Source: Octopus sinensis
Taxonomy: Eukaryota
Assembly: GCF_006345805.1 (NCBI RefSeq)
Contig: NW_021826390.1
Span: 1 to 13,031, forward strand
Direction of reading: 5' to 3'
DNA length: 13,031 bases
Position 1 is the first letter of the stretch; the number at the start of each line of letters is the position of its first letter. The notes under the pieces are model-generated. The model saw only the letters and a list, made by a program, of their open reading frames with translations, was not told the origin of the DNA and ran no database searches. The position numbers and the translations under genes are program-made. Positions 1-13,031 of this stretch are shown here, piece after piece.

Positions 1-126
1 CTTATCGTAATTGTTTTTCAATAGGAAATAGTCTCGTTTCGCTTATTATGCGTCGTGTCTGTCTCAAGATGGCGCCTCGTCCGATTTAGAGCAGATTTAA
101 TGGTTTAATAAGTAAAGGGGACAGAC

Positions 127-141
127 GTGTGTGTGTTTGTG

Positions 142-205
<64 letters not shown>
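127..205. repeat. (GT)n microsatellite
   Basis: Near-perfect GT dinucleotide run read directly. Confidence 0.97.
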
Positions 206-208
<3 letters not shown>

Positions 209-329
209 GACATATATGCATGCATATATATATTTATATCAATAGATTTAGAAATATGTATGTAGATAGCTGCATACTTACATACGTACATCATTACACA
301 AATACACATACGCGCTAACATATATATAT

Positions 330-731
330 GTGGCTGTGTGGTAAGTAGCTTTTTTTACCAACCACGTGGTTCCGGGTTCAGTCCCACTGCATGGCACCTT
401 GGGCAAGTGTCTTCTACTATAGCCTCGGGCCGACCAAAGCCTTGTGAGTGGATTTGGTAGATGGAAACTGAAAGAAGCCTGTCGTATATATGTATATATG
501 TGTGTGTTGTGTGCATGTTTGTGTGTCTGTGTTTGTCCCCCTAGCATTGCTTGACAACCGATTCTGGTGTGTTTATGTCCCCGTCACTTAGAGGTTCGGC
601 AAAAGAGACCGATAGAATAAGTACTGGGCTTACAAAGAATAAGTCCCGGGGTCGAGTTGCTCGATTAAAGGCGGTGCTCCAGCATGGCTGCAGTCAAATG
701 ACTGAAACAAGTAAAAGAGAATAAAAGAGAA
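330..731 (+). mobile_element. tRNA-derived SINE, near full length (octopus-type family A)
   Basis: A-box-like TGGCTGTGTGG (331-341), B-box-like GGTTCAGTCC (375-384), internal TA/TG microsatellite, 3' end ...GACTGAAACAAGTAAAAGAG. Highly similar copy at 9898-10300 and an inverted copy at 4547-5008. Confidence 0.88.
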
Positions 732-771
732 TATATATATATATATATATGGGGGGTATACATATATATAG

Positions 772-915
772 TCTTTTATTCTTTTACTTGTTTCAGTCAT
801 TTGACTGCGGCCATGCTGGAGCACTGCCTTGAAGAGCTTTAGTCGAACAAATCGACCCCGCTAAGTTACGGGGACGCAAACACACCAACACCGGTTGTCA
901 AGCTGTGATGGGGGG
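772..915 (-). mobile_element. 3' fragment of SINE family A, inverted, internally deleted
   Basis: CTTTTACTTGTTTCAGTCATTTGACTGCGGCCATGCTGGAGCAC is essentially the reverse complement of the 3' end of the 330-731 SINE. Confidence 0.8.
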
Positions 916-931
916 TACACATCACACAACG

Positions 932-1056
932 GTACCGATAGACTAAGTACTAGGTTTTTTTAAAAAATAATTCCTGATGTCGATTTGTTCAACTAACACA
1001 CTCCAAGGTGGTGCTCCAGCATGGCCGCATTGAAATAACTGAAACAAGCAAAGCGA
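932..1056 (+). mobile_element. Diverged 3' fragment of SINE family A
   Basis: ACCGATAGACTAAGTACTAGG...GGTGGTGCTCCAGCATGGCCGC...ACTGAAACAAG matches 608-711. Confidence 0.72.
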
Positions 1057-1119
1057 ATTTTTAAAAAATCCACTTTCTTATCATATTGTACCGGAAACAT
1101 CTTTTAAAGTGTATCTCTT

Positions 1120-1876
1120 CAGATTTTTAATAGAGATTAGAGCCAGCACTGAATGTTAGGCCTTTTCGTATACAAATACGTCTATGTAAACAATGTGATT
1201 GACGATAGAGGAATGGGTAATGGGTGTAGATGCATATTTCAGGAGTTCTTGTTCTTTTTTCAGTGACGCATCCACCTTATTAATAATCATTCATGAACAC
1301 ATTGCTTAAATGGCCGCTAAATACAGCAAACCGGTTTTACTTATTAAACATTCCTGGAAGCTGGTACGTAAATACTAATAACCTGTAGGGAAGCGGTATT
1401 TCGTTAAGCAACCACAATATACTACAAAGTATGTTAAACACTTTTATAAGTCAACAACTGTGTTCTTCTGTGTTAGCAGTGCTATCACATCACTTGTTAA
1501 GGTTATTTCTACAGATTTTCTATAGAAATTATGGCCAGCACTGATCTTGTTACGACGTTTCGTATCCAGGATGCCAAATGTAAAGATGAGATAGAAAAGA
1601 TACCTATTTCATCTATTAAACACATTCCTGGAGACTGATATATAAATATTAATGACTTGTATGGACACGGTATTTCGTTAAGCAACCACAATATACTACA
1701 AAGTATGTTAAACACTTTTAGAAGTCAATACCTTGTCCTTCTGTGTTAGCAGTGCTATTAAATCCCTTTTTAAAGTTTAAGTAATGAGTGTATATGCCAT
1801 ATTTCATATTTCAGGAGCTATTGCCCCTTCACTAGCACCACCTCCATACTATTAACCATCTGTGAAGACATTGTTT
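1120..1876. repeat. Degenerate, rearranged local duplication
   Basis: 1394-1446 equals 1668-1720 (53 bp identical, similarity extending on both sides); 1120-1152 resembles 1512-1544; ~1217-1330 resembles ~1781-1876 and continues after the SINE at 2281. Confidence 0.75.
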
Positions 1877-2267
1877 GGATGGAAGCACTGCGTCGGTTAC
1901 GACGATGAGGGTTCCGGTTGATCCGAATCAACGGAACAGCCTGCTCGTGAAATTAACGTGCAAGTGGCTGAGCATTCCACAGACACGTGCACCCTTAACG
2001 TAATTCTCGGGGAGATTCAGCGTGACACAGAGAGTGACAAGGCCGGCCCCTTTGAAATACAGGTACAACAGAAACAGGAAGTAAGAGTGAGAGAAAGTTG
2101 TGGTGAAAGAGTACAGCAGGGATCACCACCATCCCCTTGCCGGAGCCTCGTGGAGCTTTTTAGGTGTTTTCGCTCAATAAACACTCACAACGCCCGGTCT
2201 GGGAATCGAAACTGCGATCCTATGACCGCGAGTCCGCTGCCCTAACCACTGGGCCATTGCGCCTCCA
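1877..2267 (-). mobile_element. tRNA-derived SINE, full length, with target-site duplication (family B)
   Basis: Minus-strand head GGAGGCGCAATGGCCCAGTGGTTAGGGCAGCGGACTCG...GTTTCGATTCCCAG with A and B boxes; flanked by GAAGACATTGTTT (1864-1876) and GAATACATTGTTT (2268-2280), a 13-bp TSD with 1 mismatch. Confidence 0.88.
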
Positions 2268-2591
2268 GAATACATTGTTTAAATAACCACTAAATTTATC
2301 GGTGTAACTCTTGGATATACCATTTTCGCATATCAAAACCATTCCTGGCAATTTCTACGAACACATCAACATGGATCGCAAAGTCTACGATTCTACGCCG
2401 TCTCTTTTGTCCCCTGTAACCATTGGAGCATGTCTTTGATGCGCGGTTCATTAACTGCGGAACTTATTTCCGAATTTTATCTTGTTTATTTTAGATTTAT
2501 TCGTATTTTTTTCCCCTATCCTTTCACGGTTAGTTTGGGAAATTGGAATCAAAGGGGTTCCTAAATAAAATCTGTGGAGAATCACTGATCT

Positions 2592-2598
2592 AGAGAGA

Positions 2599-2648
<50 letters not shown>

Positions 2649-2680
2649 TAGATAGATAGACAGACAGACAGATAGATATT

Positions 2681-2727
<47 letters not shown>

Positions 2728-2788
2728 GTGATAGACAGACAGACTGATAGACAGACAGATAGATAGATAGACAGACAGACTGATAGAC

Positions 2789-2855
<67 letters not shown>

Positions 2856-2896
2856 CAGATAGATAGACAGATAGATAGACAGACAGATATACAGAC

Positions 2897-2983
<87 letters not shown>

Positions 2984-3063
2984 GACAGACAGGCAGGTAG
3001 GCAGACATACAGACAGATAAATAGAGACAGGCAGAGACAGACAGACAGGTACATACATACATA
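2592..3063. repeat. Compound microsatellite (GA)n-(GATA/GACA)n-(TACA)n
   Basis: Read directly; explains the YLSI-repeat ORFs in three minus-strand frames. Confidence 0.97.
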
Positions 3064-3776
3064 CCAAGGACATTCTCAGAACCAGTAACCTCTCCTGGAC
3101 CTGCGATAAATCCATCACATCTCACTTGGAAGGCCACGCCTTTACTATCGAGCAACAGGAGACAGCTATTAAATACCTAATCAACACCACTGATAAGATT
3201 TCCTCTCGGCTTCTGCGTCGTAAATAGCAGAAAATGTTGATTGGGTCGAACCAGTGTGGAAGGCATCACTGCTATTATCAACAGCTGTCCAAAAATGTCC
3301 GCCGCAAGATATTATCTTCCCGTGAAACTCGACGTTGTCGCCAACATCGTTTGCAATGTTATACGTCGGAACTGATTTAAGTATGTTTACATCATTTGTG
3401 TACAGAAAGAAATTTTCTCTACGACAAAACACAGAGAATGGCCTATTTACGAGTCCAAACGTGCCACAACCATATTTGAACTGGTTATGACATTGGATTT
3501 ATACACTCCACTGCTTCGTGCTCCCCCTCCGTAATTTGTTTACGGTTAGCTGCCGCATGGCACTAATCAGTCACGGTACCGTAACTGAAATAGCATAAGA
3601 GAAACAATCTCTTTAATCAGTTCGTAGCGTCGCCTTGCCTGATGTCTGTTACCGAAGAGGGGATAACCACTCCGAAATGCTGGCCATAATTTCTATCGAA
3701 ATTATCGAACCCATTGCTTAAATACCCACTGAATACAGCATTGCAGCATTATTGAATATACCAATTTTACATATTA

Positions 3777-3985
3777 AACACAGAGGGGACAAACAAGGAT
3801 AGACAAAGGGATTAAGTCGATTACATCGACTCTAGTGCGTAACTGGTACTTTATTTATCGACCCCGAAAACCATGAAAGGGAAGTTCGACCTCGGCGGAA
3901 TTTGAACTCAAAACGTAAAAGGCGGCGGAAGACGTCGCTAAGTATTTTGTCCGGCGTGCTAACGATTCTGCCAGGCTCACCGTCT
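3777..3985 (-). mobile_element. tRNA-derived SINE (family C) with a MetaSINE-like central motif
   Basis: Minus strand: GGTGAGCCTGGCAGAATCGTTAGCACGCCGG...GAGTTCAAATTCC (B box)...CCTTTCATGGTTTTCGGGGTCGATAAATAAAGTACCAG. The last segment resembles the conserved CCTTCCATCCTTCCGAGGTCGGTAAAATGAGTACC-type SINE domain as recalled. Confidence 0.78.
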
Positions 3986-4425
3986 CAATAATATGGCAGT
4001 TTCATAACATACGGTTCATGGTTGAGATTTCACGGATCACTGAACGAAACACACACACATCGTCATTACCAATTTATGCGGGTCATCTACGGAGATGCCA
4101 GCGACTCAATGTCTCCCCTTTGCTCGTCACCCACTTCCAGCGCAGTGAGCCAGGCTGCTGGGACGGGTGGGATGGGGGTAAGGAAGGCAGTGAGATATAA
4201 GAAGGTAGGAGGAAGTTAGACGAAGCGAGAGAAAGAGAGGGAGAGGAGGAGGTAGATATATAAAGGTGAGAGAGAGACAGACAGAGAGAGTGAGGGGTGA
4301 GAAACGCGACGGCGGTGGAAAAACATGTCTTGGCGAAATGGTGCGGAAGTAGGTAAAATAACAGATTGTTTCTGATGGCTGTGGTCTTGGTAAAGGTGTG
4401 TGTCTGTGTGTATGCGTATGCGCAT

Positions 4426-4528
4426 GCGCAGGTTTGGCTGTGTGGTAAGAGGTAAGAAGCTTGCTTCCCAACGGCATGGTCCTGGGTTCAGTCCCACTGC
4501 GTGCCACCTTCGGCAAGTGTCGTCTGCC
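4426..4528 (+). mobile_element. 5' (tRNA head) fragment of SINE family A
   Basis: TGGCTGTGTGGTAAGA...GGGTTCAGTCCCACTGCGTGCCACCTTCGGCAAGTGTC matches 331-415. Confidence 0.8.
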
Positions 4529-4546
4529 ACATACAATATACACATA

Positions 4547-4751
4547 TTCTTTAATTCTTTTACTTGTTTCAGTAATCTGACCGCGGCCGTACTGGAGCAC
4601 CGCCTTAAAGATCATTTTTTTTTTTAGTTGAAGAAATCGATCTCAGGACTTATTCTTTGTAAGCCTAGCACTTATTCTATATTGGTTACTTTTGCCGAAC
4701 CGCAAAGTTACGATGACGTAAACATGCCAAGCGATGTTGGGAGGACAAACA

Positions 4752-4802
<51 letters not shown>

Positions 4803-5008
4803 TATATATATATATATATTATATATATATATATATAATAATATATATATATACACGACGGGCTTCTTCAGTTTCCGTCTATCAAATCCACTGACAAAGC
4901 TTTTGTCGGCCCAAGGCTATAGCGGAAGATACTTGCCCAAGGTGCTATGCAGTGGGACTGAACCCGGAATCGTGTCGTTGGGAAGCAAGCTTCTTACCAC
5001 GCAGCCTA
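4547..5008 (-). mobile_element. SINE family A, near full length, inverted, with expanded internal (CA)/(TA) tract
   Basis: Reverse-complement match to 330-731 from tail (CTTTTACTTGTTTCAG) to head (CTTCTTACCACGCAGCC). Confidence 0.85.
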
Positions 5009-5065
5009 TATATACGTGCATACACATGTATGTATATCTATCTAGTATAGCAAGCAATCAACCAA

Positions 5066-5067
<2 letters not shown>

Positions 5068-5114
<47 letters not shown>

Positions 5115-5117
5115 ATA
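5068..5117. repeat. (TA)n microsatellite abutting the tandem array
   Basis: Read directly. Confidence 0.92.
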
Positions 5118-5388
5118 ATTAATTATAGGGTGAGAGAATTAGATACTAATTTAATAGTATATCCATTCAACACCAGTGGCCTAGTGCTCCGAGAAACCTG
5201 GATTATATAATATTTTATAATTGATTATAATATTTTTACAAAATAAATATAAGAGAGTGGTCACTATATGGCTCACTCTAGCACCAGTTAATCCAAAAGG
5301 TTTCAACCACTAAAAATACATGTTTCCCATGAAAGTCAGTACGATTGTTAGCTCACACGGACAGGGCAAATAAAAAATAACAAAAATA

Positions 5389-5483
5389 CAGATTATTTTG
5401 GGACAATTGTTTCGCTATTAATGAATTAAATGTAATTTTACTTACAAAAAATCCACTTGTAGCTCATCGGCCAAAACTATCTG
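5389..5483 (-). ncRNA. Type I hammerhead ribozyme, copy 1 (predicted cut between 5402 and 5401)
   Basis: Minus RNA: CAGAU-AG-UUUUGG [CCGAUGA] GCUA...UAGC [GAA] AC-AAUU-GU [C] CCAAAA-UA-AUCUG. Stems I, II and III all pair. Confidence 0.8.
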
Positions 5484-5922
5484 GATGAAATCCACTCAAT
5501 CACACGCCAGATTTTACCATAACGATAAATACGCGTGTGGTTCAATTGGTTACATCCGACGTTATAATTCAATGCCCCACTAACAGCAGCGCGCCAAACT
5601 TTCACGGAAAACAAATACAGCATTTAGAAATAAATGCAGCATAATTATAATTAATTAATAAGGGTGAGAGAATTAGATACTAATTTAATAGTATATCCAT
5701 TCAACACCAAGTGGCCTAGTGCTCCGAGAACCTGGATTATTATAATATTTTATATATATTATAATATTTTTACAAAATAAATATAAGAGAGTGGTCACTA
5801 TATGGCTCACTCTAGCACCAGTTAATCCAAAAGGTTTCAACCACTAAAAATACATGTTTCCCATGAAAGTCAGTACGATTGTTAGCTCACACGGACAGGG
5901 CAAATAAAAAATAACAAAAATA

Positions 5923-6018
5923 CAGATTATTTTGGGACAATTGTTTCGCTATTAATGAATTAAATGTAATTTTACTTACAAAAAAATCCACTTGTAGCTC
6001 ATCGGCCAAAACTATCTG
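5923..6018 (-). ncRNA. Type I hammerhead ribozyme, copy 2
   Basis: Same motif as copy 1; C17 at 5936. Confidence 0.8.
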
Positions 6019-6452
6019 GATGAAATCCACTCAATCACACGCCAGATTTTACCATAACGATAATACGCGTGTGGTTCAATTGATTACATCCGACGTTATA
6101 ATTCAAATGCCCCAACTAACAGCGCGCCAAACTTTCACGGAAACCAAATACAGCATTTAGAAATATGCAGCATAATTATAATTAATTAATAAGGGTGAGA
6201 GAATTAGATACTATTTATAGTATATCCATTCAACACCAAGTGGCCTATGCTCCGAGAAACCTGGATTATTATAATATTTTATATATATTATAATATTTTT
6301 ACAAAATAATATAAGAGAGTGGTCACTATATGGCTCACTCTAGCACCAGTTAATCCAAAAAGGTTTTCAACCACTAAAAATACATGTTTCCCATGAAAGT
6401 CAGTACGATTGTTAGCTCACACGGACAGGGCAAATAAAAAATAACAAAAATA

Positions 6453-6548
6453 CAGATTATTTTGGGACAATTGTTTCGCTATTAATGAATTAAATGTAAT
6501 TTTACTTACAAAAAAATCCACTTGTAGCTCATCGGCCAAAACTATCTG
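6453..6548 (-). ncRNA. Type I hammerhead ribozyme, copy 3
   Basis: Same motif; C17 at 6466. Confidence 0.8.
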
Positions 6549-6985
6549 GATGAAATCCACTCAATCACACGCCAGATTTTACCATAACGATAAATACGCG
6601 CGTGGTTCAATTGATTACATCCGACGTTATAATTCAAATGCCCCAACTAACAGCGCGCCAAACTTTCACGGAAAACAAATACAGCATTTAGAATAAATGC
6701 AGCATAATATAATTAATTAATAAGGGTGAGAGAATTAGATACTAATTTAATAGTATATCCATTCAACACCAAGTGGCCTAGTGCTCCGAGAAACCTGGAT
6801 TATTATAATATTTTATAATATATTATAATATTTTTACAAAATAAATATAAGAGAGTGGTCACTATATGGCTCACTCTAGCACCAGTTAATCCAAAAGGTT
6901 TCACCACTAAAAATACATGTTTCCCATGAAAGTCAGTACGATTGTTAGCTCACACGCGACAGGGCAAATAAAAAATAACAAAATA

Positions 6986-7080
6986 CAGATTATTTTGGGA
7001 CAATTGTTTCGCTATTAATGAATTAAATGTAATTTTACTACAAAAAAATCCACTTGTAGCTCATCGGCCAAAACTATCTG
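6986..7080 (-). ncRNA. Type I hammerhead ribozyme, copy 4
   Basis: Same motif; C17 at 6999; 1-nt deletion in the distal part of stem II. Confidence 0.78.
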
Positions 7081-7515
7081 GATGAAATCCACTCAATCAC
7101 ACGCCAGATTTTACCATAACGATAAATACGCGTGTGGTTCAATTGGTTACATCCGACGTTTAATTCAAATGCCCCAACTAACAGCGCGCCAAACTTTCAC
7201 GGAAAACAAATACAGCATTTAGAAATAAATGCAGCATAATTATAATAATTAATAAGGGTGAGAGAATTAGATACTAATTTAATAGTATATCCATTCAACA
7301 CCAAGTGGCCTAGTGCTCCGAGAAACCTGGATTATTATAATATTTTATAATATTTATAATATTTTTACAAAATAAATATAAGAGAGTGGTCACTATATGG
7401 CTCACTCTAGCACCAGTTAATCCAAAAGGTTTCAACCACTAAAAATACATGTTTCCCATGAAAGTCAGTACGATTGTTAGCTCACACGGACAGGGCAAAT
7501 AAAAAATAAAAAATA

Positions 7516-7610
7516 CAGATTATTTTGGGACAATGTTTCGCTATTAATGAATTAAATGTAATTTTACTTACAAAAAAATCCACTTGTAGCTCATCGGCCA
7601 AAACTATCTG
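7516..7610 (-). ncRNA. Type I hammerhead ribozyme, copy 5
   Basis: Same motif; C17 at 7529; 1-nt deletion in the stem III palindrome (possibly sequencing error). Confidence 0.7.
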
Positions 7611-8048
7611 GATGAAATCCACTCAATCACACGCCAGATTTTACCATAACGATAAATACGCGTGTGGTTCAATTGATTACATCCGACGTTATAATTCAAA
7701 TGCCCCAACTAACAGCGCGCCAAACTTTCACGGAAAACAAATACAGCATTTAGAAATAAATGCAGCATAATTATAATTAATTAATAAGGGTGAGAGAATT
7801 AGATACTAATTTAATAGTATATCCATTCAACACCAAGTGGCCTAGTGCTCCGAGAAACCTGGATTATTATATATTTTATAATATATTATAATATTTTTAC
7901 AAAATAAATATAAGAGAGTGGTCACTATATGGCTCACTCTAGCACCAGTTAATCCAAAAGGTTTCAACCACTAAAAATACATGTTTCCCATGAAAGTCAG
8001 TACGATTGTTAGCTCACACGGACAGGGCAAATAAAAAATAACAAAATA

Positions 8049-8141
8049 CAGATTATTTGGGACAATTGTTTCGCTATTAATGAATTAATGTATTTTTACT
8101 TACAAAAAATCCACTTGTAGCTCATCGGCCAAAACTATCTG
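8049..8141 (-). ncRNA. Type I hammerhead ribozyme, copy 6
   Basis: Same motif; C17 at 8061; small homopolymer indels. Confidence 0.75.
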
Positions 8142-8580
8142 GATGAAATCCACTCAATCACACACGCCAGATTTTACCATAACGATAATACGCGTGTGGT
8201 TCAATTGATTACATCCGACGTTATAATTCAAATGCCCCAACTAACAGCGCGCCAAACTTTCACGAAAACAAATACAGCATTTAGAAATAAATGCAGCATA
8301 ATTATAATTAATTAATAAGGGTGAGAGAATTAGATACTAATTTAATAGTATATCCATTCAACACCAAGTGGCCTAGTGCTCCGAGAACCTGGATTATTAT
8401 AATATTTTATAATATATTATAATATTTTTACAAAATAAATATAAGAGAGTGTCACTATATGGCTCACTCTAGCACCATTTAATCCAAAAGGTTTCAACAC
8501 ACTAAAAATACATGTTTCCCATGAAAGTCAGTACGATTGTTAGCTCACACGGACAGGGCAAATAAAAAATAACAAAAATA

Positions 8581-8676
8581 CAGATTATTTTGGGACAATT
8601 GTTTCGCTATTAATGAATTAAATGTAATTTTACTTACAAAAAAATCCACTTGTAGCTCATCGGCCAAAACTATCTG
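8581..8676 (-). ncRNA. Type I hammerhead ribozyme, copy 7
   Basis: Same motif; C17 at 8594. Confidence 0.8.
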
Positions 8677-9113
8677 GATGAAATCCACTCAATCACACGC
8701 CAGATTTTACCATAACGATAAATACGCGTGTGGTTCAATTGGTTACATCCGACGTTATAATTCAAATGCCCCAACTAACAGCGCGCCAAACTTTCACCGG
8801 AAAACAAATACAGCATTTAGAAATAAATGCAGCATAATTATAATTAATTAATAAGGGTGAGAGAATTAGATACTAATTTAATAGTATATCCATTCAACAC
8901 CAAGTGGCCTAGTGCTCCGAGAAACCTGGATTATTATATATTTTATAATATATTATAATATTTTTAAAATAAATATAGAGAGTGGTCACTATATGGCTCA
9001 CTCTAGCACCAGTTAATCCAAAAGGTTTCAACCACTAACAATACATGTTTCCCATGAAAGTCAGTACGATTGTTAGCTCACACGGACAGGGCAAATAAAA
9101 AATAACAAAAATA

Positions 9114-9206
9114 CAGATTATTTTGGGACAATTGTTTCGCTATTATGAATTAAATTAATTTTACTTACAAAAAATCCACTTGTAGCTCATCGGCCAAAAC
9201 TATCTG
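9114..9206 (-). ncRNA. Type I hammerhead ribozyme, copy 8
   Basis: Same motif; C17 at 9127; small indels in the stem II extension. Confidence 0.76.
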
Positions 9207-9642
9207 GATGAAATCCACTCAATCACACGCCAGATTTTACCATAACGATAAATACGCGTGTGGTTCAATGATTACATCCGACGTTATAATTCAAATGCCC
9301 CAACTAACAGCGCGCCAAACTTTCACGGAAAACAAATACAGCATTTAGAAATAAATGCAGCATAATTATAATTAATTAATAAGGGTGAGAGAATTAGATA
9401 CTAATTATAGTATATCCATTCAACACCAAGTGGCCTAGTGCTCCGAGAAACCTGGATTATTATAATATTTTATAATATATTATAATATTTTTACAAAATA
9501 AATATAAGAGAGTGGTCACTATATGGCTCACTCTAGCACCAGTTAATCCAAAAGGTTTCAACCACTAAAAATACATGTTTCCCATGAAAGTCAGTACGAT
9601 TGTTAGCTCACACGGACAGGGCAATAAAAAATAACAAAAATA

Positions 9643-9737
9643 CAGATTATTTTGGGACAATTGTTTCGCTATTAATGAATTAAATGTAATTTTACTTACA
9701 AAAAAATCCACTTGTAGCTCATCGCCAAAACTATCTG
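9643..9737 (-). ncRNA. Type I hammerhead ribozyme, copy 9
   Basis: Same motif; C17 at 9656; one C missing from the CCGAUGA core (plus strand CATCGCC instead of CATCGGCC), either a real defect or a sequencing error. Confidence 0.62.
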
Positions 9738-9897
9738 GATGAAATCCACTCAATCACACGCCAGATTTTACCATAACGATAAATACGCGTGTGGTTCAAT
9801 TGATTACATCCGACGTTATAATTCAAATGCCCCAGGAAAGGGATGTGTGGCGTTCGATCATATAATAACAATTTAATAAATAAAACATATGCATATA

Positions 9898-10300
9898 GGC
9901 GTAGGAGTGGCTGTGTGGTAAGTAGCTTGCTAACCAGCCACATGGTTCCGGGTTCAGTCCGACTGCGTGGCACCTTGGGCAAGTGTCTTCTGCTATAGCC
10001 TCGGGCCGACCAATGCCTTGTGAATGGATTTGGTAGACGGAAACTGAAAGAAGCCCGTCGTATATATGTATATATATATGTATGTGTGTATATGTTTGTG
10101 TGTGTCTGTGTTTGTCCCCCTAGCATTGCTTGACAACCGATGCTGGTGTGTTTATGTCCCCGTTACTTAGCGGTTCGGCAAAAGACACCGATAGAATAAG
10201 TACTGGGCTTACAAGAAGAATAAGTCCCGGGGTCGAGTTGCTCGATTAAAGGTGGTGCTCCAACATGACCGCTATCAAATGACTGAAACAAGTAAAAGAG
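9898..10300 (+). mobile_element. tRNA-derived SINE family A, full length
   Basis: GGCGTAGGAGTGGCTGTGTGGTAAGTAGC head, GGTTCAGTCC B-box-like motif, tail GAAACAAGTAAAAGAG; closely similar to 330-731. Confidence 0.9.
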
Positions 10301-10560
10301 TATACATACATACATATATGTACATACCTACATCTATATGTATATGGGTACAGGACATCAAAAAAATGTTGAACACAATGAGAAACGAAAACATAAAAAC
10401 GAAAACATGGAAACGAACTTCTTTTTAAATAACGAAAAAACAGAGTACAAGACATACAACACAAGGAATATTCCCCTCTTCAGTTGCCCCCCCCCCCTCC
10501 CCGAGCACACAGCCACCACACTCATCCAACAACACCACCGCTACATCCACTGACCGTTGG

Positions 10561-10622
10561 TGACTAAATCTGTTTGCTTTGAGCACCGAGTAAGTGCTCA
10601 ACAGAGCAACAAGAATTAGTCA
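10561..10622. other. ~62-nt imperfect hairpin
   Basis: TGACTAA/TTAGTCA outer pairing, TTGCT/AGCAA middle pairing, TTGAGCAC/GTGCTCAA inner stem with a 7-nt loop. Confidence 0.6.
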
Positions 10623-10660
10623 ACGAAGGGACATCGACGTGATTGCTCAATCTTTTAGAA

Positions 10661-10885
10661 CATAGGTTCCCAACCATATTTTTTATCTATGGACCCTTTC
10701 CATGACTATTTTATTCTGGTGGACCCCCATCGCAATTAAATGTTCAAAAACTAGTTTTATAGAATTTCTTCCAAAATTCCTATTTTGTTATATTCGAAAA
10801 AAAAGCGCTCTCTAAAGTAGGGATTCCCAACCAGGGGTCCACAGAAGCTTTAAGAGGGTCCACAAGTAAAAAATTGTGGACAAAA
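10661..10885. mobile_element. Possible hAT-like MITE end fragments
   Basis: CATAGGTTCCCAACC (10661) and TAGGGATTCCCAACCAGGGGTCC (~10818) resemble the CAGGGGTTCCCAA-type TIR starts of hAT MITEs; no matching opposite TIR was found. Confidence 0.3.
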
Positions 10886-11273
10886 TCTTTATATATAAAA
10901 GTGAGGTTGTGTGCTGTCTGTCTCCTACGATTTAGATTCCTAACTATTCCCACATTTTGCGGTGCAGTTTAACCAAAACCGGGTATCTTATAGTCGTGAT
11001 TCATATCGAGCCCTTCTGGGTATTAGCGCGCGTCTACGATTTAAAAAAAAATTTACCATCAATTTTTCCCATTTTTAATGCATTTTTGGCATATATAAGT
11101 GAAGTAACTCTCTAAAAATTTATTATTAAATCTCAGAACGTAAAAAGCTACAGTAACACCCCCCCCCCTTTCCGGTTAGCCATATTGAGATGGCTATTAT
11201 ACTTTACATCTCTAAAAATGCTTATATAGTTATTTCCCTTACAAACCCGAGCAACGCCGGGCGATACTGCTAG
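10886..11273 (+). mobile_element. Non-autonomous Helitron (388 bp)
   Basis: 5' A|TC start (TCTTTATATATAAAAG), subterminal GC-rich hairpin CCCGAGCAACGCCGGG (11246-11261), 3' end CTAG|T; inserted between A and T with no TSD. Confidence 0.85.
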
Positions 11274-11427
11274 TAATATATAAATTTTGTTTCCTAGGAG
11301 AGGTGCCTGTATTTTTTTGAAATTTTCAGGATTTCTATTTGGAATTTATGTTATGAATATAACGAAATTGTTTCGTTGTTATTTCGTTTTGGGGTTTGGT
11401 TTGCAAGATCCTTTATAGAAGCATATA

Positions 11428-11590
11428 CTGTTGTGTCTGGGGAGAGTCATTCTCTTTTTGTGCCTTATTATTTAACACACTCACCGGTAAAATTTCCACT
11501 TTTTTCTTTCCTAAAATTTTCGTTGCGTCTTGCAACCTTTTCCAGTAGTCTTGACTCTTGAAAGACTATTGAAAATAAAGAAATAAGAAT
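11428..11590. mobile_element. Probable truncated palindromic (foldback/MITE-like) repeat
   Basis: Central imperfect inverted repeat TTTTCCAGTAGTCTT...AAGACTATTGAAAA (~11538-11575); element boundaries are approximate. Confidence 0.35.
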
Positions 11591-11601
11591 TACTATCACA
11601 A

Positions 11602-11602
11602 G

Positions 11603-11628
<26 letters not shown>
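11602..11628. repeat. (CTA)n microsatellite
   Basis: Read directly; source of the poly-Ser ORF. Confidence 0.92.
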
Positions 11629-11634
<6 letters not shown>

Positions 11635-11743
11635 ACACCCCCTCCGCATTAAGCAAGCTAAGTGAAGTTAGCAAACATCAAAACTGAGCGATCAATTGAA
11701 ATTAAGCGATAAGGCGTCCAGATATTAGTGTAGCGGACTGACG

Positions 11744-11753
11744 GGTGTGTGTG

Positions 11754-11793
<40 letters not shown>

Positions 11794-11837
11794 ACACACA
11801 CACATATATATATACATATATATACATATATACATAT
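11744..11837. repeat. (GT)n-(CA)n-(TA)n compound microsatellite
   Basis: Read directly. Confidence 0.92.
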
Positions 11838-12222
11838 AAACGGTAGTGGAGGGGGTTTGACGTGGTGGTTTGTTTAACTGGCAGGGTGGTTGTCTGGGTA
11901 GCTGGGTGGCTGGCTGGCTGGTTGGCTGGTTGGTTGGTTAGGGGGTGTACAGAGACGGGTGGAGTGTGGGAGCAGAATTGGGGGTGGTGACGGCGGGGGT
12001 GGTGGGTCGGGTGAATTCGGGGTAGGTTGGGTAGGTGATGGGTGGATGGGTGGATGGGTGGCTGGCACAATGCTGCTTATAGGTGGTCCGGAGTGTAGGT
12101 TGTCATGTATACATGGGTACGCATTGTGTGTGCGTATATATACACGCACACACACACACATATATATGTTATGTGTTTGTATGGGTATCTGTGCACAAGC
12201 TTGTGCGTGCATGTACGTATGC

Positions 12223-12225
<3 letters not shown>

Positions 12226-12274
<49 letters not shown>

Positions 12275-12369
12275 ATGTGGTCTATATATATATATATATA
12301 TATATATAACATATATACATATAACATATATATATGCTCTGTGTATATATATATATATATAATAGATAC

Positions 12370-12406
<37 letters not shown>

Positions 12407-12532
12407 ATATATTATATATATATATTATATATATATATACATATAACAAAATATACATATAGCATGTATCTCTTATGATAAATATGATATATGTGTATTT
12501 ATTTATATATATATATACATATATATATACAT
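12226..12532. repeat. Degenerate (TA)n microsatellite field
   Basis: Read directly. Confidence 0.92.
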
Positions 12533-12609
12533 AAAATGTGACCTCGTGTGTACCGTTGGCGATTTTTTTTTCCTCTGTCTTCCCTTCTCTGGATCTTCCC
12601 TTCTCCTAT

Positions 12610-12643
12610 GTTCCGAGGAAGAGCTCCGCTCGAAACGTTAAAC
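12610..12643 (+). ncRNA. Degenerate minimal hammerhead-like motif within a short insert (~12533-12733) in (TA)n
   Basis: GUU [CCGAGGA] A GAGC-UCC-GCUC [GAA] AC-GU [U] AAAC: stem II perfect, palindromic AACGUU stem III, weak stem I, non-canonical core. Confidence 0.45.
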
Positions 12644-12733
12644 TCTCCTTCTTTCCTAAGCGTCCAATAATACTTTATTTGTTCCACGTCCTCGCGTTGT
12701 TGTGTTTTTTTGTGCTTTCTTGTTTGGATTAAC

Positions 12734-12738
12734 TATAT

Positions 12739-12792
<54 letters not shown>
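12734..12792. repeat. (TA)n microsatellite
   Basis: Read directly. Confidence 0.92.
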
Positions 12793-12794
<2 letters not shown>

Positions 12795-13031
12795 TATATG
12801 TATTATATACATATAAATAGGCCTATTTGGCTGCTATTTTAGCACGCATGACAATCATCTCAACGACTGTGACAAAAATATTCGATCGATAAACAAGTCC
12901 AGTTTTTCAATACAAAGGGACGTCTCATGAGAGTAGTCAGATCGATAATAAAAGTGCATCCTTATTCCAGGCAGACCTAGACATCAGTAAATGCAGACTT
13001 GATTTCTGAACATTCATTGATCCTGAAACCG

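Follow-up and report, generated by a model that had tools for sequence, protein, structure and literature searches.

A U4C hammerhead motif of type I with a long stem II in a young, retrozyme-like repeat of Octopus sinensis

Background

What is a hammerhead motif with an altered core doing in nine near-identical tandem copies on a single octopus contig, and can it still cut? The window studied here is the whole stretch of 13,031 nucleotides at positions 1 to 13,031 (forward strand) of contig NW_021826390.1 of Octopus sinensis (RefSeq assembly GCF_006345805.1). An earlier note, made from this sequence alone, had described one of the motifs as an unusual hammerhead architecture and had proposed that neighbouring units pair with each other to activate cleavage. 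Each 534-bp unit of a young, non-coding repeat in the window contains a type I hammerhead motif that combines a long stem II with U4C in its core. We consider it probable that the repeat works as a retrozyme and that the U4C change is tolerated, the ribozyme still being able to cut.

The hammerhead motif and its array in the window

The predicted type I hammerhead lies on the minus strand, from 5483 to 5389 (copy 1, the main finding, identified by motif pattern, fold and covariation), and its sequence, read directly, is as the earlier note describes: CCGAUGA recurs on the minus strand in eight copies and, minus one C, in a ninth; stem I, the long stem II and the 2-bp stem III with its AAUU loop read as given there, and the self-complementary stem III region is present as the palindrome ACAAUUGU. 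Stem I consists of 6 bp, an AG/UA internal loop and 5 further pairs, between a 5' strand CAGAU-AG-UUUUGG (5471..5483, minus strand) and a 3' strand CCAAAA-UA-AUCUG (5389..5401, minus strand). The core C3 C4 G5 A6 U7 G8 A9 occupies 5464..5470 (minus strand, motif pattern), with C3 at 5470, the changed C4 at 5469 and U7 at 5466. Stem II (5414..5463, minus strand; like stem I recognized by fold and covariation) begins with 4 bp, GCUA/UAGC; a CA/AA internal loop then occupies the place where loop 2 canonically lies, and beyond it comes a long extension, capped by GUAAAA and comprising AGUGGAUU/AAUUCAUU with two G-U pairs, UUU/UUU and finally UGUAA-GUAAAA-UUACA. G12 A13 A14, the 2-bp stem III, its AAUU loop and C17 at 5402 follow at 5402..5413 (minus strand, motif pattern), where the segment reads GAAAC-AAUU-GUC and the palindrome spans 5403-5410; by hammerhead numbering the cut is predicted between 5402 and 5401.

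Three helices surround the core and the strand ends lie in stem I, as in type I hammerheads; the helix lengths of 6 bp (I) and 4 bp (II) agree with those of the type, both helices being followed here by internal loops where the type has interacting loops. C3, G5, A6, G8, A9, G12, A13, A14, A15.1-U16.1 and H17 are all present in eight of the nine window copies. Position 4 is U in the hammerhead definition and C in the window subfamily, and we file the motif as a hammerhead variant, U4C being a reported natural one (PMC3088659). Six base pairs in stem I and four in stem II are the canonical helix lengths (PMC4209133); because internal loops follow at exactly these points, we infer that the stem II extension is an insertion into loop 2 that would keep the tertiary contact between loop 1 and loop 2.

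The motif recurs in a one-armed tandem array on the minus strand (5115..9834; motif pattern and insertion mapping) with ~8.8 units of ~534 bp and a GC content of 32-33%. Copies 2 to 9, all on the minus strand and located by motif pattern, lie at 5923..6018, 6453..6548, 6986..7080, 7516..7610 (copy 5, in which one loop III base is missing, probably a read error), 8049..8141, 8581..8676, 9114..9206 and 9643..9737 (copy 9, in which one core C is missing, probably for the same reason). Most differences between units are 1-nt indels that resemble errors of long reads; each of the eight full units carries 4-9 of them. They are non-coding: no ORF of 80 aa is repeated across units, and the ORFs of that size amount to one 81-aa frame in a single unit and one running off the end. 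The array is truncated on its 5' side at 9834 (unit position 453) and represents a one-armed insertion with its 3' end at site A; the window holds no second arm, and the 22 bases past 9834 occur once in the genome. A (TA)n microsatellite (5068..5117, from repeat and flank inspection) adjoins the fixed end A, and a 'tail' of ~125 nt (5115..5240, minus strand, insertion mapping) separates the two fixed 3' ends of the family, site A (~5115) and site B (~5240).

A single G/A site, at 5549, 6083, 6614, 7146, 7676, 8208, 8742, 9271 and 9803, follows the order G A A G A A G A A from the first unit to the ninth. Only 3 of the 84 possible placements of three G among nine units give such a period-3 arrangement, which fits either a three-unit template or a triplication of DNA. 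Outside the array, two loose hammerhead-like cores with CCGA-type starts were noticed in repeats, at 12613-12647 and 3652-3689 (+), and a direct repeat of ~100 bp was seen by eye at ~1400-1480 and 1660-1760 of the window.

Predicted folds

The 95-mer containing the motif is predicted to fold with z = -5.1 on the minus strand (none of 200 shuffles beat it) and z = -2.3 on the plus strand; a plus-strand motif was rejected given this weaker fold and a plus-strand core in none of the nine copies. Instead of the three-way junction, ViennaRNA gives as its minimum-energy fold a structure with CCGA paired to UUGU; relative to this, the hammerhead fold is less stable by 6.3 kcal/mol in a model that ignores tertiary contacts. 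This inactive register is stronger with C4, its pairing probability being 0.85 compared to 0.09 for a natural U4/U7 copy. One predicted monomer from cleavage site to cleavage site (6466..6998, minus strand, 533 nt) is strongly self-paired, as retrozyme monomers are, with -152.2 kcal/mol and z -7.6 (0 of 100 shuffles).

A dispersed repeat family with a conserved structure

The unit is a dispersed repeat of the 2.72-Gb genome and occurs as short arrays on many contigs. A 14-mer of the 3' core has 2,062 genome matches (control 3), and the C4/U7 pattern of the window has 84 exact matches, spread over 26 places; one of these is a chance match and the other 25 are family loci, or 24 without one duplicate. 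We retrieved 92 stretches, namely the 25 other C4/U7 places, 7 with U4/U7, 40 from contig 1 chosen by the 3' core only, and 20 other C4 places; L048 and L130 were dropped as chance pattern matches, and L059, L102 and the second L096 were counted as duplicates. Identities of the relatives range from 99% down to ~70%. At L096, L125, L101/L102 and L046/L059 the entire insertion has a second copy, either close by or on a different contig; these are segmental or assembly duplicates.

The proposed structure is conserved across this range. Among 25 distinct copies, with identities down to ~70%, its pairs form in 96.8% of 684 cells, compared to 32-41% in slid controls. The earlier note had suggested covariation in homologues as a check, and stems I and II do covary: both partners have changed in 6 of the 28 pairs, of which five belong to stem I and the sixth to the extension of stem II, and the stem III pairs are invariant, in a set that represents few lineages of related copies, with old-family copies picked by the 3' core, and that provides support rather than a significance test. 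The CA/AA internal loop is almost invariant in the same 25 copies, and the long stem II with its GUAAAA loop is family-wide, with GUAAUA in one subfamily.

An Rfam scan of the window gave no hammerhead match at E<=10, only low-complexity noise, and three loci with U4 cores likewise gave no hammerhead match at this threshold. The expectation that a variant core and a long stem II together would evade standard searches is therefore borne out as to the evasion; U4C is not needed to explain it, because U4 copies are missed too, and the long stem II is the likely cause.

Repeated origin of the U4C change

Is the altered core a hallmark of the family? A census of the genome in one 16-mer frame gave 1,178 cores with U4 (~91%) and 119 with C4 (~9%), and in the sample from contig 1, selected on the 3' core, C4 is found in 4 of 97 cores. 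C4 is thus a minority, and as U4C is moreover a known natural variant (PMC3088659), the idea of a family defined by this architecture has to be given up in favour of a tolerated change that U4C would represent. That the change is not a random read error, as claimed earlier, holds, since U4C is real; however, the eight window copies cannot serve as independent evidence, because they all come from one insertion; independent support is given by the 84 exact matches at 26 places of the genome, all but one of these places being family loci.

Other core changes are rare: U4 changed to a purine has 4 genome matches, a changed A6 has 6 (control 1), a changed G5 has 6 (control 5) and a changed C3 has 6 in an 18-mer frame, the census covering positions 3, 4, 5 and 6. 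Trees were calculated for 83 of 93 loci, and positions 4 and 7 were removed from the alignment for the topology test. A single C4 clade was rejected both with all 42 C4 rows (p-AU 2e-5) and with the 40 young rows (p-AU 0.013). The tree contains a C4/G7 group of 11 loci, a young group of C4/C7 and C4/U7 copies, and two C4 copies in the old family; the C4/U7 group of the window, whose branches are close to zero, lies nested within U4/C7 copies, all this in a tree whose support is rough, with bootstrap not settled, and among copies that may recombine. Judging from these groups, U4C arose several times in the family and spread, and C4 lineages could each derive from one master array. The census counts together with the rejected single clade indicate purifying selection on the core, with U4C as the one tested change that passes repeatedly. 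Such repeated passing matches the report from a viroid, in which U4C lowers activity in vitro yet permits infectivity (PMC3088659, citing its ref. 30, Ambros and Flores 1998), and suggests that the octopus U4C ribozyme likely still cuts, probably more slowly.

Three insertions are mosaics: U4 and C4 units alternate in L114:805-3761, with A9U in two of the U4 units, the two arms of L131 differ in that one carries C4 and the other U4, and position 7 reads C,U,U,C,U along the array of L066.

A slower ribozyme might also be an advantage. Slower cutting could keep circles from reopening and make them better templates, so that U4C would be positively selected as a dimmer. The repeated origin and amplification of U4C, including the near-zero branches of the window group nested among U4/C7 copies, would fit this idea, and that the ribozyme must be restrained in circles has been argued in PMC7229834. 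On the other hand, only ~9% of cores have C4, drift of master copies would give the same picture, and there is no sign of a C4 advantage, because C4 arrays (median 3.3 units, n=24) do not exceed U4 arrays (2.8, n=19) in length (p=0.41; other comparison p=0.98). We regard positive selection of a dimmer as unlikely. A more elaborate version, which we offer as a speculation with similarly poor prospects, takes U4C as a repeatedly selected dimmer in which an impaired and partly misfolded ribozyme keeps circles closed for longer and now and then leaves circles of 2-3 units for a Penelope-type reverse transcriptase (RT) to copy over and over, with the G-A-A pattern and L114 as records of such circles and the GUAAAA hairpin as a handle for a protein. 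We continue to prefer tolerance of U4C to its selection.

Insertion footprint and probable Penelope-type copying

How did the arrays reach their places? Among the 93 mapped insertions, 58 consist of two arms with their 5' ends joined head to head. Site A lies at one end and site B at the other, both against (TA)n, in 55 of these 58 (53 of 56 without two duplicates); one of the remainder has site A at both ends and two are not classable, the A/B calls being BLAST end positions in AT-rich sequence, with at least one short arm (L066) doubtful. Site B lies ~125 nt further in than site A, so the tail is found at one end only. Penelope-like elements (PLEs) are recognizable by inverted copies with a 5'-truncated arm, by a tail confined to one end and by their (TA)n targets (PMC8557442); their tail is made by two RT start sites (PMC11167929). 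The octopus family displays the inverted 5'-truncated arm, the one-ended tail and the (TA)n target alike, the window itself having one arm. As to a target-site duplication of more than 4 bp, the insertion ends lie in (TA)n.

Ordinary satellite DNA, in which a relic motif is multiplied by unequal crossing-over, could give nine near-identical tandem units, and the period-3 site could be a triplication at the DNA level. However, the arrays of the family are short and scattered over many contigs, their arms are inverted and their ends in (TA)n are fixed, and its compensatory changes and purified core are not those of a relic; the insertion anatomy largely refutes this explanation, which we regard as very improbable. 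Our preferred mechanism runs as follows: transcripts would be cut into unit-length RNAs, which are likely joined into circles; a Penelope-type enzyme, borrowed for the purpose, would then copy them into (TA)n; and the arrays would arise by rolling-circle reverse transcription.

The 5' ends of the insertions bear on the template. There are 151 of them, spread round the unit, and only two fall within ~5 nt of the cut site, where 3.7 are expected. A linear monomer template was rejected, as the pile-up of 5' ends expected at the cut site is absent (2/151). Because the 5' ends ignore the predicted cut site, the enzyme appears to read through it, and the template would be a circle or an uncut multimer. 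For one insertion of 12 pieces with C4 (L042), four changes are common to both arms, two of which, at unit positions 20 and 33, are not fixed at any of the other sampled loci. Such sharing speaks for a single template of unit length that was copied again and again, and for this a C4 RNA would have had to be cut and closed. The four shared changes (L042:1998-7782) are all A-to-G in the RNA sense, like A-to-I editing of a template, and the outermost unit at end A is without two of them, as would be the case had a different molecule supplied the tail.

Spreading as such does not prove cutting, because an anole PLE was inserted in vitro without hammerhead cleavage, uncleaved RNA being its main template (PMC11167929). 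The U4C copies could accordingly be dead or near-dead passengers, either uncut multimers of a few master arrays that are copied whole or RNAs cut in trans by U4 ribozymes. The inactive register favoured with C4 and the anole experiment are in line with such passengers, as are the alternation of U4 and C4 units in L114 and the period-3 site of the window, which fits a multimeric template. Passengers do not explain, however, why among the tested core changes U4C alone rises above a handful (119 versus 4-6), and does so in several lineages, and the changes common to both arms of L042 fit a unit-length template. We thus hold passengers to be improbable and retain a U4C ribozyme that likely still cuts.

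The genome also contains an intact PLE family with RT and GIY-YIG domains, the copies of which terminate in (TA)n at either of two points ~35 nt from each other (6 ends with a tail, 10 short). This family (L163-L166, L169) is young, ~98-99% identical, and has an intact 781-aa frame of RT, CxxC and GIY-YIG and an upstream 479-aa frame without a Pfam match; by its CxxC motif it appears Neptune-like (PMC8557442). Sequence common to the unit and a PLE was found in none of 40 PLE loci, save two that contain a retrozyme insertion, these loci being drawn from 147 scored of 5,029 GIY-YIG candidates and belonging mostly to one family. Retrozyme insertions lie within ~1 kb of a PLE copy at L163:6767-7859 and L172:7249-7973, a proximity that may reflect a common taste for (TA)n.

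Does cleavage depend on dimers?

The earlier note had tied activity to the tandem layout: cutting would occur only when the ACAAUUGU palindromes of neighbouring units pair. The palindrome is real, and its duplex is predicted at -7.8 kcal/mol, compared to a cost of +1.0 kcal/mol for stem III in the monomer. Furthermore, when loci were selected by the 5' core, an exact GAAACAATTGTC was present in 113 of their 126 copies, the others being mostly indel-like or parsing variants; an axolotl motif with the same 2-bp stem also performs better as a dimer, the monomer reaching 22% in 1 h (PMC7229834). Nevertheless, a short palindromic stem III is not the sign of dimers for which it had been taken, as 2 bp with a palindromic tetraloop are the usual invertebrate form, and retrozyme monomers of coral and mussel cleave at ~0.8 and ~0.1 per min, respectively (PMC7229834). 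Compared to the hammerheads of the obligate-dimer class (newt, ASBVd and minimal PLE motifs), loop III of the octopus motif is palindromic as well, but helix III has 2 bp and a tetraloop instead of 1 bp or none. The conservation of the loop says little, the 126 copies being mostly young and the old ones chosen on the loop. A dimer would also need a swap of the 11-bp stem I across 534 nt, and free cutting in trans should let mutants with a dead core spread, which instead stay rare. An obligate dimer is in our opinion doubtful. In the mechanism that we prefer the monomer would be able to cut; a dimer may help cleavage, and our data lend no support to a requirement for it. Dependence on dimers explains the tandem layout less well than does the copying mechanism, of which it would be a product.

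Traces in sequencing runs

Position 4 was also inspected in contigs of seven runs guessed to be RNA, six of which show U4 only; in the run X2, U4 accounts for 63.8 of a summed depth of 248, and in X15, a run of kind not recorded, for 95.6%. As this evidence consists of contigs from runs whose RNA nature is guessed, it cannot show level, strand or circles, and a single self-closing contig of 565 nt in X1 fits tandem DNA as well as a circle. Low-depth contigs from X2, X4 and X9 show clusters of A>G or T>C at 6724-7787 and 5780-6200 of the window; the X4 cluster includes core A13, and the clusters are mostly missing from X15. They look like hyper-editing on both strands, in runs that are only guessed to be RNA.

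Implications and comparison with known systems

The family amounts to a natural mutagenesis screen of the hammerhead core within one animal genome, in which, of the counted changes, U4C alone has spread. Natural U4 and C4 copies that are otherwise identical within the motif can be compared directly, and such a comparison bears on the cutting that a retrozyme needs and on how circles avoid reopening, a question left open in PMC7229834. Since the family as a whole escapes Rfam, hammerheads may be undercounted in genomes of this kind. The footprint of the insertions, in turn, supports copying driven by PLEs, which had been proposed from co-occurrence and homology (PMC7229834; bioRxiv 10.64898/2026.07.22.740005). 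A literature search for octopus retrozymes gave no match by title or abstract, subscription papers lying outside the search; what is added here is the census within a genome of a repeated and amplified U4C beside a purified core, together with a covarying stem II extension.

The octopus family agrees with the metazoan non-LTR retrozymes (coral, mussel and axolotl, PMC7229834; vertebrates, bioRxiv 10.64898/2026.07.22.740005) in that its tandem units are non-coding, low in GC and equipped with a single type I hammerhead, in the 2-bp stem III with a tetraloop and in the self-paired monomer, and PLEs have been proposed as mobilisers for those retrozymes too. Tandem units of a few hundred bp at many loci, one hammerhead in each, and a GC content below 50% (32-33%) are retrozyme features that it shows, and it likely works like the non-LTR retrozymes of other animals. 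The unit of 534 bp exceeds the 150-450 bp of PMC7229834 and lies inside the 51-972 bp of bioRxiv 10.64898/2026.07.22.740005. The long stem II extension and the amplified U4C lineages set the octopus family apart; homology to a pLTR was not found among the 40 PLE loci compared, mostly of one family, and head-to-head arms with two fixed ends are not among the structures described in the available parts of either source.

The viroid hammerhead with U4C (PMC3088659) carries the same core change, reportedly with lower activity in vitro that is sufficient in vivo. Unlike in the viroid, U4C has appeared repeatedly in the octopus and has spread within a family of genomic retroelements whose sister variants can be counted. 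Endonuclease-bearing (EN+) Penelope-like elements share with the octopus family the inverted 5'-truncated arm, the tail at one end, a type I hammerhead, AT-rich or (TA)n targets and two RT start sites (PMC8557442, PMC11167929, PMC4209133). The octopus family differs from them in having no ORF, a full-size instead of a minimal hammerhead, and a tail of ~125 nt compared to 30-40 nt. Finally, the pDo500 satellite of Dolichopoda, for which single and double hammerhead models have both been proposed, resembles the octopus unit in its ~500-bp tandem unit, its conserved hammerhead and in position 7 as the most variable one (PMC2837043); in contrast to pDo500 as described there, U4C is amplified in the octopus, and its arrays are dispersed insertions with PLE-type ends.
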